A stretch of DNA of 64,000 nt from Microcoleus vaginatus WJT46-NPBG5 (GCA_019359355.1 JAHHHM010000015.1:45147-109146), one strand, 5' to 3'; positions 11,769 through 21,443 are shown, counted from the stretch's first letter. Notes: generated by a model from the sequence alone, not told the origin. Program-made: numbers and translations.

Positions 11769-12623
11769 TTGATAATGGGTTGTGCAAAAAGTTTGCTGAC
11801 TAGCTCTAATAAGGGTCGCATCTGGCTGATTGGAGGGACTCAGGAAAGTGCGACGCTGGCTAAAATTATTGCTCAGGAGCAATGGCCCTGTACAATTTCT
11901 GTAACGACGGAAGCAGCGATGGCTTTGTACCCACCGGCACCTCTGTTGCGTGTGCGGGTTGGCAAGTTGGACGCATTTCAGTTAGCGCAGTTTTTGCAGA
12001 GTGAGTCAATTTGTGCGATTTTAGATGCTTCCCATCCCTACGCGGTTGAGGTTTCTAAACTTGCGATTGCGACTGCTTGCCAATATCAAATTCCTTATCT
12101 GCGTTATGAACGCCCAAGGTTAGATTTAATCCCGCACGCCGATTATCCAAATTTTCCCGATCTTGGCTTAGAAAATTCTCAAATCTTCACCTGCTTAGAC
12201 AGTTTCGACACGCTGTTAAGAAGTGAAATTTTAACAGGACAGCGAGTGTTGCTAACTGTCGGATACCGGACTCTAGTTTTATTTCAACCTTGGCAGGATA
12301 AATGCACCCTATTTGCCCGGATTTTGCCTTCTGTGCCGGCCCTAGAGGCAGCTTTGGCGGCTGGTTTTACTCCTGATCGTTTGATTGCGCTGCGTCCGCC
12401 GGTTTCATTGGATTTGGAGAGATCCCTATGGCAGCAGTGGCAAATTTCTCTGGTGGTGACAAAGGCGTCTGGGGTTGCCGGTGGTGAGGATGTGAAGCGG
12501 ATCGTTGCCAGTGAGTTGGGTGTGCCGGTGGTGGTGATAGATAGGCCGGCTATTGAGTATCCGCAACAAACGAGTGATGTTGCAACAGCTATGGAATTTT
12601 GCCGGCAGCATCTTACTCTTTAA
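11769..12623 (+). CDS. cobK: Precorrin-6A / cobalt-precorrin-6A reductase-like protein (CobK/CbiJ family)
   Basis: 284 aa with IWLIGGTQESATLAKII near the N-terminus, resembling the CobK/CbiJ nucleotide-binding start; overall assignment by resemblance only. Confidence 0.45.
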   Translation: MIMGCAKSLLTSSNKGRIWLIGGTQESATLAKIIAQEQWPCTISVTTEAAMALYPPAPLLRVRVGKLDAFQLAQFLQSESICAILDASHPYAVEVSKLAIATACQYQIPYLRYERPRLDLIPHADYPNFPDLGLENSQIFTCLDSFDTLLRSEILTGQRVLLTVGYRTLVLFQPWQDKCTLFARILPSVPALEAALAAGFTPDRLIALRPPVSLDLERSLWQQWQISLVVTKASGVAGGEDVKRIVASELGVPVVVIDRPAIEYPQQTSDVATAMEFCRQHLTL

Positions 12624-12893
12624 CAGTCAGGGTAAACGCATCAAAATAATAGCTCAGATTATGCCTCCTCAGATGCAAGGAAAGGGGCAAGAATTTGTAG
12701 CATGAACTGGTCATCGAGTCCGGCTCTATAGCGTTTCATCGCTAAACTGCCCTTTGAGGGTTCCTGACGCAATAAGTTGAGGGCAAAACGACGCAGCAAG
12801 CTTAAGTTACGGGGTGCAGGGTCTTTGCGAACGCGAAAAGCATCTTCGTTGAAGACGACATCAAGGCACCAATGTAGATTGTCCTTGGCCAGA
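12621..12893 (-). mobile_element. C-terminal remnant (about 75 aa) of an ISAs1-family DDE transposase
   Basis: Minus-strand frame reads WVSLAKDNLHWCLDVVFNEDAFRVRKDPAPRNLSLLRRFALNLLRQEPSKGSLAMKRYRAGLDDQFMLQIL, matching the conserved ISAs1 tail (HW.LDV.F.ED.SR.R...AP.N...LRR.ALNLL...KR..A..D..FLL.IL). An in-frame TGA lies just upstream and the rest of the transposase is absent. Confidence 0.7.
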
Positions 12894-12914
12894 CTGACCC
12901 ATCATTGCCCAACC

Positions 12915-13022
12915 TTATCCTTGTGCCACAATCTCAATATCGAGTAGCGCAAGTGCCTGCACATAGAAGGCTTTACTCTGCTCAAAATCATTGATGGCAA
13001 AACCGATGTGGTCAAGGATCAT
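12915..13022 (-). pseudogene. Truncated N-terminus (35 aa) of a VOC/glyoxalase-family gene
   Basis: MILDHIGFAINDFEQSKAFYVQALALLDIEIVAQG* is a typical glyoxalase/bleomycin-resistance fold start; stop 20 nt before the IS remnant. Confidence 0.5.
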
Positions 13023-13529
13023 TACAACCTCCAAGCAAAACTAACGCTGTAGAAGTTGGAAGACAATGTTTCGTCCTAACTTCTGCTCATAGGCTAACTT
13101 GCCCCAAAGTTGCGCCAATGATTCGAGTAAACCAGAGTTGGCTAGTGAACCTGCATCGACTGATTCAACCCTACCAGCTTCTGCCCCTTTTCAATCACGA
13201 TTTGTCAACCCCTTAAACGGTTACCTTCTCAGACACTCTCTAACCTTTTTATACTACCGCAGGGGGAAGACGAACTATTAAAGACCAATGTACAATAACC
13301 AAGGGACTAAGAAAATACGAAATCGTAAGGTGTAATAAGCAAATTCCTGGAAACTACTTTGAATTTACTAATTAATAATCCTCCTCATCTGGCTAAACTA
13401 ATCTTTACAGAATCTTTTCTGATCTTTATAAGCGTAAGCAACAGCCAAATATTTAAGCGATTAAACATACTAGCGTGTGTTTAATTTTTTGTTGTTTTCT
13501 TATACTGGTGAGGTCTTAAAAGGTCGTTC

Positions 13530-19631: not shown

Positions 19632-19864
19632 GGGAGGGTTAAAAAAACTTCCTACCAGCTCAAAGCGAGATTTGAAAAAGATGAATTTGGATTTTCACAT
19701 GCTCTAGAAGAGCTATAGCGATACTTTTTAGAATTTGAACGGGGTGTAGGGAGAATCCCATGCGTAGGGCAAAGCTATGCCCCCTTTTCACAACTTATCT
19801 CTGATCGCCATAAATCGTGAAAGCTATCTCTCACCTGGAGCTTATGTTATGAGGTTACAACAAT

Positions 19865-20695
19865 ATGAAAGGATGGCTATTGATAGCTATAACTACCCTT
19901 CTAGTTCATCTGGTAGTTTATGGAGAACCCTTTTCTCGTAAAGTGACGTCCTTCTCTCACTTGCCCCAAATTTTAGGAGCAAGCAAACCAGTATCGGCAG
20001 GTAGAGAGGCAGCAATTCAAGATAGAACTGACAACAGACGAGAGTTAGAGGTAGTTGAGCAAGTTAATTCATTCCACTCAATGCCGCGTAGCCAAGCAGC
20101 CGCAGTTTTGCTAGATGAAGCAAACCGCGAACTTAACCTTATAAGAACAACTACTTATTCACATAAAACTCAAGTTGATGAAGCAATTGGTCAATTTCGC
20201 TATGACTGTTCAGGCTTCCTGAAATACGCACTCACCCACAGTGTCCCGGAAGCGCTCCATTCTCTCCAAGAGGCAACTGTTCGTCGCCCCCTTGCTAAGC
20301 ATTTCGTTAGATTTATCACATCCTTACCACCAGGAGAGGTAGAAGGTCACTGGAAACCGCTTGAACAAGTTACTGATCTTGCACCTGGAGATATTATCGC
20401 ATGGCTCAAGCCTGCCGATATAGAGTCCGATAATACAGGACACGTGATGATCGTTTGGGGTACTATTCAACAGCATCCCACCCGCTCTAATGAAATTATT
20501 GTCCCTATTATTGATTCAACTGCTATTCCCCACGGGCAAAGTGACTCTCGCTATCAAACAGAAGCAACTGGCCTTGGAACTGGGAATATTATCCTAGTTG
20601 CAGATGAAGCTGGTCAAGCCATTGGTTACCGTTGGTCTAATTCTCATAACTCTCGTAAGCGTATAACCACAGTAGCTTTGGCTCGTTTGGAATAG
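19865..20695 (+). CDS. NlpC/P60-superfamily cysteine hydrolase, candidate gamma-glutamyl polymer hydrolase (PgdS-like position)
   Basis: N-terminal signal/TM segment. FRYDCSGFLKYAL resembles the NlpC/P60 catalytic Cys context (FDCSGFV) and TGHVMIVWG resembles the catalytic His block (GHVGIY). Gene order mirrors Bacillus pgsBCA(E)-pgdS. Confidence 0.5.
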   Translation: MKGWLLIAITTLLVHLVVYGEPFSRKVTSFSHLPQILGASKPVSAGREAAIQDRTDNRRELEVVEQVNSFHSMPRSQAAAVLLDEANRELNLIRTTTYSHKTQVDEAIGQFRYDCSGFLKYALTHSVPEALHSLQEATVRRPLAKHFVRFITSLPPGEVEGHWKPLEQVTDLAPGDIIAWLKPADIESDNTGHVMIVWGTIQQHPTRSNEIIVPIIDSTAIPHGQSDSRYQTEATGLGTGNIILVADEAGQAIGYRWSNSHNSRKRITTVALARLE

Positions 20696-21081
20696 CTGTA
20701 GTGGCTTGCTTTGCAAGAAGGCTTGGGCTTGCAAACGAGTAAATCAAGCTCGAATTAAACTGCAAATAGCTTACTTTTGAGTGCTTGGACTCGGATTAAA
20801 CTGAAGTTCCCCCCTGCCAAAAGCGCAAAACTGTTGCCTCAAGCGACTTTGAGCCTGTTTTCAGTCGCTCCTTACTGGGTACAATCGATGAAACTTTGAT
20901 ATAGCGAGGGCTTCAGTCGATTTTTTGTCTTTTGTAAGCCTAGTACGAACGCACTATGATTACAACAGTTTACATGGGTACGGCTTAAGCGAGTTCAACA
21001 GTGATGTGCAAGGATTGGCAGGAGTTTTGGGGCAAGTAGTACATCAGTATGGGGGAACTTCTTCAGGAGGCGACAACAGAG

Positions 21082-21443
21082 CTAACGTGGTTGCTGAATC
21101 AGAGTTATAGCTCGTAAGCCTCGTTGATAAAATGATTTTTTGTTGGACGTATAATTAAGCATTTCCTCGACCCATAACTGGCAGGAGTAGAAAGCAATTA
21201 ACCAGTTTTCTCCATAAAAACCTATCCAAAATTTGCTATGTCTCCTTCCAGGCGCGTTTGGCATTGCCATAGGTTTCGATTGCCACCGAGACTATCTGCC
21301 CCTGCCGGCACCCCAAACAAGGCGATAGCAATGATGTCGAGCAATTGATGAGCGTCAGTGCACTCGACTCTGGGGTCAGCAATCTCACCAAAGTATTGTT
21401 CCAGGCCGGCAGACAAGCTCTCTCGATTGATAATAGGAGGCAT
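21082..21443 (-). mobile_element. N-terminal remnant of an ISAs1-family transposase (DDE_Tnp_1-associated domain), degenerate further downstream
   Basis: ORF 21222..21443 reads LEQYFGEIADPRVECTDAHQLLDIIAIALFGVPAGADSL, the conserved ISAs1 N-terminal motif (..DPR......L.DIL.IA..AV.AGA). The frame then breaks; the shifted frame MAMPNAPGRRHS loosely continues the LPNGIPSHDT block; nothing recognisable beyond. Confidence 0.6.

Follow-up and report, generated by a model that had tools for sequence, protein, structure and literature searches.

Poly-gamma-glutamate synthesis genes between the two ends of an ISAs1-family insertion sequence in Microcoleus vaginatus WJT46-NPBG5

Mobile insertion cassettes (MICs) are defined as passenger genes that are located between inverted repeats of the insertion sequence (IS) type and are not accompanied by a transposase (PMC4337579), and they are listed among the derivatives of ISs (PMC3129680). 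Transporter ISs (tISs) are IS copies with passenger genes (PMC3129680). The present study concerns a stretch of 64,000 nucleotides, termed the window, from the metagenome-assembled genome of Microcoleus vaginatus WJT46-NPBG5 (GCA_019359355.1 JAHHHM010000015.1:45147-109146), in which genes for the synthesis of poly-gamma-glutamate (pgs genes) are situated between two remnants of an ISAs1-family IS. We conclude, with a probability of roughly 0.8, that window positions 12628-21506 are one ISAs1-family insertion unit, in which the outer IS ends were kept and the core was replaced by a foreign pgs cargo.

The unit has the same layout as MIC231 of Bacillus cereus and the TnXax1-derived MICs of Xanthomonas: the passenger genes lie within IS-type inverted repeats, the unit has no transposase of its own, and it is flanked by a target-site duplication. 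MICs described so far tend to be short, multi-copy elements, of which some have been shown to be mobilised in trans; the unit carries 8.35 kb of cargo and is known from one site. It further differs from them in that recognisable remnants of the transposase gene are retained at both ends and the cargo ends in a truncated gene. A tIS resembles the unit in holding passenger genes inside its terminal repeats, but it keeps the transposase, of which the unit has lost codons 65-308. The composite transposon, in turn, also has IS sequence on both sides and a duplication around the whole; it is made up of two copies of the same IS, however, whereas here a single 5' part and a single 3' part amount to less than one IS, and no extra terminal-repeat match occurs between the remnants. 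A past composite state of the unit is conceivable, though improbable. An autonomous IS of this kind would measure ~1.2-1.5 kb and contain one intact transposase open reading frame (ORF), so that the unit is a derivative and not an IS proper. Within the ISAs1 family, a mosaic of ISPmar4 and a transposable module driven by IS1247a is reportedly known from Paracoccus marcusii, to go by the title of a 2009 paper by Szuplewska and Bartosik that PMC3281130 and PMC5216076 cite. As far as that title tells, the mosaic would resemble the unit as an ISAs1-family element with foreign DNA inside its boundaries, and would differ from it in that the module there is itself transposable, while the cargo described here lacks ends of its own and lies in an IS that has lost its core.

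Over a length of 8,879 bp, the unit is inserted between cobK and the gene for an RTX/beta-helix protein. Perfect 15-bp inverted terminal repeats, CAGGGTAAACGCATC, bound it at 12628-12642 and 21492-21506 (15 of 15 positions), and the similarity extends over 26 nt at 85%, making this the longest inverted repeat of the region. Exact matches to CAGGGTAAACGCATC occur twice in the 64-kb window, once at either end of the unit, and the ends of ~1,265-bp full-length ISAs1-family copies found elsewhere (contigs L001 and L002) have the identical sequence. That no other exact match is present in 64 kb, that no inverted repeat of the region is longer, and that L001 and L002 terminate in the same sequence identifies the repeats as true IS ends. 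A perfect 10-bp direct repeat, CTTTAACAGT, abuts each terminal repeat (12618-12627 and 21507-21516) at exactly the predicted offsets, for which the calculated chance expectation is ~1e-6 (4^-10). This target-site duplication shows that both outer ends were inserted together in one event. The stop codon of cobK, TAA at 12621-12623, lies inside the duplicated 10-mer, and since both copies of the 10-mer carry the TAA, it was not created by the IS. Members of the ISAs1 family have short terminal inverted repeats that start with CAGGG, as in the ISfinder table, and generate target-site duplications of about 8-10 bp; the unit carries CAGGGTAAACGCATC at both ends and a perfect duplication of 10 bp. 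Positions 12628-21506 are an insertion, and both of its limits go back to one and the same transposition. Elsewhere, 43 single matches to the 15-bp terminal repeat in viral contigs were set aside as chance matches, as 0 of the 43 contigs encode an ISAs1 transposase.

A homolog search with the remnants recovered many fragmentary relatives, and essentially full-length IS copies from two contigs, L001 (2748-4009, 1,262 bp) and L002 (361-1626, 1,266 bp). Both copies end in ...TGCGTTTACCCTG. L002 is flanked by its own perfect 10-bp duplication, CAAAAAAAGA, and no recognisable target-site duplication is present in the flanks of L001. A third contig, L003, contains an independent internal-deletion derivative of the same IS group, 684 bp in length (1382-2065), which indicates that in this group the core is lost repeatedly while both ends are kept. 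The reference transposase of 389 amino acids, against which the remnants were read, was composed of the two frameshifted ORFs of L002 and a C-terminal tail taken from the close homolog P0002, the tail being added because the second L002 ORF ends early. The reference scores 407.8 bits on the NCBIfam model NF033564, 'ISAs1 family transposase', and its residues 10-379 are covered by a single unbroken alignment with full-length transposases from cyanobacterial plasmids that are annotated as ISAs1.

Two ISAs1 remnants in the same orientation on either side of the pgs genes were the core of the original prediction, which was made from the window sequence; tblastn, Pfam and NCBIfam agree that both are real, belong to the ISAs1 family and lie on the minus strand. 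The C-terminal remnant, running from 12886 to 12662, corresponds to reference codons 309-383 with 75% identity (tblastn, E=2e-31) and covers positions 278-314 of the 314 positions of NF033564 (E=5e-12). The N-terminal remnant, from 21431 to 21239, corresponds to codons 1-64 with one frameshift near 21284 (tblastn) and matches Pfam PF13808 DDE_Tnp_1_assoc with 43.9 bits against a cut-off of 32.3. In transposases of the ISAs1 family, this N-terminal domain is combined with a catalytic domain, DDE_Tnp_1. The two are complementary, as had been proposed, and neither overlap nor adjoin one another: codons 65-308, ~740 bp that include the DDE core, are missing, and no further sequence from the pgs-flanking IS was found anywhere in the window (tblastn, E<=10). 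The 8.35 kb of cargo occupies the place of this missing core. The earlier suggestion that one IS copy was simply split by an insertion does not hold, since the core was replaced and not interrupted. The original prediction had also staked itself on fragments of one family that do not overlap and on the ends of intact copies; the fragments do not overlap, both are of the ISAs1 family, and the full-length copies share the ends of the unit.

The limits of the IS DNA had to be redrawn on both sides. On the left, the remnant had been placed at 12621-12893; IS DNA is indeed present from 12628 to ~12880-12886, but 12621-12627 belongs to the cobK stop and the target-site duplication. Fine alignment locates the inner junction with the cargo between 12878 and 12886. 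On the right, the proposed remnant at 21222-21443 is real, but the IS DNA spans 21239-21506, a stretch that takes in the terminal repeat as well as the 5' untranslated end. Its supposed decay to about 21082 was not borne out: in the alignment to two reference copies similarity is lost abruptly at 21238/21239, and tblastn at E<=10 adds nothing beyond this breakpoint.

The empty site corresponding to the insertion was found through a search for CobK homologs. In Microcoleus sp. FACHB-68 (L010), cobK is directly followed by the 1,034-amino-acid RTX/beta-helix gene; window positions 11809-12627 and 21504-24000 find their counterparts side by side on L010, where the two matches overlap by 12 bp, and a single homologous copy of the 10-mer, CCTTCAAAGT, is present at the site. 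A contig scan with CobK returned distant relatives only, with at most 57% identity and no synteny. Two of the checks that accompanied the original prediction, for inverted repeats at the outer ends and for genomes that lack the insert, have been answered in its favour, and its view of the segment as mobile or acquired DNA is supported by the terminal repeats shared with full-length copies, the 10-bp duplication and the empty site of FACHB-68. We also note that the site in FACHB-68 holds no stop codon (window 12612-12627 compared with L010 10844-10867); CobK has 287 amino acids there and 284 in the window, a difference of three codons. The called cobK gene begins two codons after the start of the 284-amino-acid ORF.

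The left end of the cargo is a truncated VOC/glyoxalase gene, recognised as such in the original prediction. Its ATG at 13022 stands; the homology, however, runs past the in-frame stop at 12915-12917, to which the fragment had been drawn, as far as ~12882. The homology thereby reaches ~codon 50, where it abuts IS codon ~309. The match of the remnant to Pfam Glyoxalase is weak (E=0.017), and homologs of ~125 amino acids, assigned to the Glyoxalase family by Pfam class, align with it from residue 1 at 55-70% identity in an exhaustive HMMER search; a word-index search with the VOC fragment gave the self-match only. Neither the 543-bp right end nor the spacer upstream of pgsB showed similarity to the fetched loci or to the rest of the window, the ORFs of both gave no family matches, and no inverted or direct repeats that would mark a second mobile element were found at the inner junctions. 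Because the VOC gene is truncated and such repeats are lacking at the inner junctions, the cargo is regarded as a piece cut at arbitrary points out of a larger replicon, without mobile ends of its own. The guanine-cytosine content is 34-42% over 13000-17500, compared with 46-50% in the flanks, which is in keeping with an accessory cargo.

Between these ends, PgsB, PgsC and PgsA/CapA are encoded together, as in a PgsBCA-type locus, and none of the pgs ORFs is disrupted in the window strain; production of the polymer is predicted from the genes. The coordinates of the unit, its parts and its flanking genes are collected in Table 1.

Table 1. Features of the insertion unit and its flanks, in window coordinates
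Feature	Position	Strand	Remarks
cobK	11769-12623	+	left flank gene
Left target-site duplication, CTTTAACAGT	12618..12627	no strand	contains the cobK stop TAA, 12621-12623
Right-end IS terminal inverted repeat	12628..12653	-	core CAGGGTAAACGCATC at 12628-12642; identical over 19 nt to the left terminal repeat of L001
IS 3' part, ~255 bp	12628..12886	-	codons ~309-383, stop 12659-12661, 3' tail and terminal repeat; blastn to L001/L002/L003 74-80%
Truncated VOC/glyoxalase, ~47-50 codons	12882..13022	-	ATG 13022, in-frame stop 12915-12917; left cargo end
pgsB, poly-gamma-glutamate synthase	13530..14768	+	intact frame; TIGR04012 equivalog, 320.7 bits (cut-off 222.7); Pfam Mur_ligase_M
PgsC/CapC-like membrane protein, 341 amino acids, tandem	14758..15783	+	PF14102, 69 bits, above cut-off, 2 stretches; TIGR04011 below cut-off
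HlyD/DevB-type membrane-fusion protein (periplasmic adaptor), 571 amino acids	15799..17514	+	PF13437, PF16576; TIGR02971 and TIGR01730 below cut-off
CapA/PgsA-like protein, 709 amino acids	17502..19631	+	PF09587 PGA_cap, 193 bits; N-terminal CarboxypepD_reg PF13620; C-terminal extension of ~320 amino acids
orf276, 276 amino acids	19865..20695	+	last cargo gene; no Pfam/NCBIfam match; 98% conserved in FACHB-672
Right cargo end, 543 bp	20696..21238	no strand	not IS-derived; no family matches for ORFs
IS 5' part, 268 bp	21239..21506	-	terminal repeat, 5' untranslated region, codons 1-64; blastn to L001/L002/L003 70-76%
Left-end IS terminal inverted repeat	21481..21506	-	core 21492-21506 = reverse complement of CAGGGTAAACGCATC
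Right target-site duplication, CTTTAACAGT	21507..21516	no strand	perfect copy of the left 10-mer
RTX/beta-helix gene, 1,034 amino acids	22272-25376		right flank, beyond an AT-rich spacer

The cargo is a pgs locus of the cyanobacterial type. PgsB is 66-81% identical to the proteins of their clusters and ~32% identical to those of Bacillus. A related pgsB-pgsC2-adaptor cluster resides on the conjugative plasmid pCHRO.01 of Chroococcidiopsis thermalis PCC 7203 (L063, 12001-17183); the host of this cluster is a desiccation-tolerant species. The cyanobacterial layout, present in the window (14758-19631), in L063 and in L016 (9986-15180), consists of a tandem PgsC of 333-341 amino acids and an adaptor of the HlyD/DevB type inside the cluster. 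The pgsBCA/capBCA loci of Bacillus (plasmid pXO2 and relatives) are alike in having the PgsB equivalog, a PgsC-like protein and CapA/PGA_cap, and they, too, are often plasmid-borne. In contrast to them, the window has a tandem PgsC of 341 amino acids, the adaptor within the cluster, and a CapA of 709 amino acids with extra domains. A scan of metagenomes with PgsB recovered five loci, and VOC, orf276 or ISAs1 adjoined the cluster in none of the five.

In the product of orf276, inspection by eye reveals 'YDCSGF' and, ~78 residues further on, 'GHVMIVWG', two stretches similar to the Cys and His motifs of NlpC/P60-type peptidases. The Bacillus gamma-PGA hydrolase PgdS is a member of an NlpC/P60-type family. 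We regard the product of orf276 as a candidate NlpC/P60-type peptidase, as a lead only; its single-sequence AlphaFold model is poor, with a predicted local distance difference test score (pLDDT) of 47.9.

Three further observations concern ISAs1-type remains. A third, unrelated ISAs1-like scrap lies on the minus strand at 56390-56509 of the window and comprises 40 codons, which correspond to residues 165-204 of the reference with 45% identity (E=6e-6). Its lineage within ISAs1 is another and more distant one, and no adjoining IS parts were detected. On a 13.6-kb Logan/ENA contig, the 154-amino-acid protein P0021 combines the N-terminal ~84 residues of an unrelated nucleotidyltransferase with an in-frame remnant of the IS group found at the pgs genes, and its IS part begins with 'CLDV' at ~reference codon 314, ~4 codons from the breakpoint in the window (~309). 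N-terminal remnants elsewhere break at codon ~52 (P0001) and codon ~58 (P0037), compared with 64 in the window. This clustering of break codons may be a coincidence or the result of detection bias.

The filled site is not confined to the window strain. The isolate FACHB-672 (L012 and L011, two contigs that adjoin each other) is colinear with the window, and the two are 94-96% identical in the flanks, in each IS remnant and over the entire cargo. Its N-terminal remnant is not frameshifted and likewise ends at codon 64, and its terminal repeats carry one or two substitutions each. The pgsB gene of FACHB-672 (L012, 11776-13014) contains two in-frame nonsense substitutions, Y221* and Q256*, and no indels; capA is intact. 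Two Logan assemblies have a structure identical to that of the window, and two contigs of one ENA metagenome (L018 and L019; ERZ25039504, contig_153297 and contig_62737) contain the same junction between cobK and the IS and end inside the IS 3' part. The recurrence in an isolate and in independent assemblies indicates that the structure is not an assembly artefact, and its identity across strains implies that the event predates the split of the strains with a filled site.

The divergence between the window and FACHB-672 is uneven. The cargo genes and pseudogene scraps are 96.2-98.2% identical, compared with 93.9-95.7% for the flanking core genes and 88% for the flanking spacer, the flanks being taken as 10000-12617 and 21517-24000. 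Exceptions to the low divergence of the cargo are the spacer upstream of pgsB (13035-13529), with 84.5% identity and many indels, and the IS 5' part, with 93.0%. The lower divergence of the cargo could mean that recombination spread the island at a later time, or that constraint is uneven. A transposase of another IS family (370 amino acids, DDE_5/DDE_Tnp_1) is inserted upstream in one filled-site metagenome strain (L018, 583-1695), where it adjoins a shortened Ribosomal_S30AE-family gene of 92 amino acids, which has 220 in relatives. Its presence suggests that ISs are generally very active in this Microcoleus clade.

These results can be drawn together in the following sequence of events. An IS of ~1,265 bp, or a derivative with its two ends, transposed into CTTTAACAGT, duplicating 10 bp, and foreign DNA now stands in the place of the core. 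The core of one IS copy would have been replaced through illegitimate (non-homologous) recombination, a step that we infer. Vertical inheritance in a Microcoleus sub-clade, with decay, would have followed. We lean slightly towards replacement of the core in situ, as opposed to replacement before the transposition to the cobK site; replacement in situ requires the fewest events among the routes considered. The frameshift in the transposase remnant of the window, together with the terminal-repeat changes and the pgsB nonsense codons of FACHB-672, suggests that the unit is decaying. It has the build of a transposase-less mobile insertion cassette and is immobile by itself. As the remnants share no sequence, it cannot be excised by homologous recombination between them.

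Several points weigh against this account. No donor locus, that is, a full VOC gene beside pgsB or an intact IS with the cargo, was found among the loci examined, and no relative with an intact, cargo-free IS at the cobK site was found, the candidate contigs L018 and L019 ending before the junction. The filled-site contig L019 is ~87% identical to all other strains, including FACHB-68 with its empty site, and its assembly is visibly noisy. If this distance is real, the empty site of FACHB-68 might have arisen secondarily through a precise loss, or recombination in the flanks might have carried the island from one lineage to another; the terminal repeats and the duplication record an insertion whichever way the distance of L019 falls. 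Lastly, a random illegitimate insertion inside one IS of 1.27 kb is a priori unlikely, which favours routes in which the IS ends caused the association. One such route, possible though on balance doubtful, is that of a non-autonomous cassette: the arrangement of IS 5' end, cargo and IS 3' end would have formed in another replicon or genome, and an 8.9-kb unit would then have been transposed to cobK, in the manner of a MIC, by a transposase that an intact copy of the same IS provided in trans. It explains the association of cargo and IS ends without a lucky insertion inside an IS, and it is in line with terminal repeats that are both perfect and identical to those of full-length copies, the retention of ~260 bp of each subterminal region, the 10-bp duplication around the whole unit, the plasmid location of a related pgs cluster in another cyanobacterium, and the deletion derivative of the same IS in L003. 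The single known insertion site, common to four of the four filled strains, speaks against it, as does the lack of a second-site copy and of an intact IS copy in the window or the fetched Microcoleus loci, and it involves one event more than replacement in situ. It differs from our favoured explanation only in where the joint was made.

We consider it improbable that the unit is a decayed composite transposon, in which two direct ISAs1 copies moved a VOC-pgs segment and two deletions later removed the inner end of each copy, the left one taking the 3' two-thirds of VOC as well. Such an element would have the same outer geometry, with an IS 3' end on the left, an IS 5' end on the right and the duplication around the whole. 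The truncation of VOC at the junction is what would be expected of a deletion running out of the left copy, and non-overlapping remnants would be favoured since recombinational excision is blocked. At least two extra independent deletions are required, however, and both must have occurred before the four strains diverged, as the breakpoints in FACHB-672 are identical; between 12887 and 21238 there is no trace of an inner terminal repeat; and remnants that add up to less than one IS without any overlap are not readily reconciled with two copies. The window does come from a metagenome-assembled genome, which leads to the suggestion that the pgs genes are native to the site and that the IS scraps are two unrelated insertions or a product of mis-assembly of the bin. 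This view is refuted, to a degree that leaves it next to no credence: in FACHB-68 the flanks meet precisely at a single copy of the 10-mer, the unit as a whole is enclosed by one duplication, an isolate genome and independent assemblies have the same structure, and recombination between two IS copies would have left one IS instead of a clean empty site. A single ISAs1-family insertion unit with a replaced core is the reading that we retain.

IS-bounded islands and IS deletion derivatives are already known, and the event is an ordinary, well understood one that raises no new mechanistic question. With this locus, the few known IS-derived cargo elements that lack a transposase gain an example from the ISAs1 family. 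For annotation, it teaches that the two small 'hypothetical' ORFs and a 35-amino-acid 'lactoylglutathione lyase' call are scars and not genes. For Microcoleus, it documents a gene acquisition with base-exact boundaries, a defined target-site duplication and an empty-site comparator, and it identifies a pgs cluster that is complete, and undamaged in the window strain, as accessory here, having arrived inside an IS shell. It is rather unlikely, but conceivable, that the unit is a still-mobilisable ISAs1-derived cassette, with which a transposase acting in trans would move a complete module for the synthesis and export of poly-gamma-glutamate between replicons of soil-crust cyanobacteria. If this were true, the production of a water-holding polymer would be a horizontally traded trait in desiccation-exposed Microcoleus.

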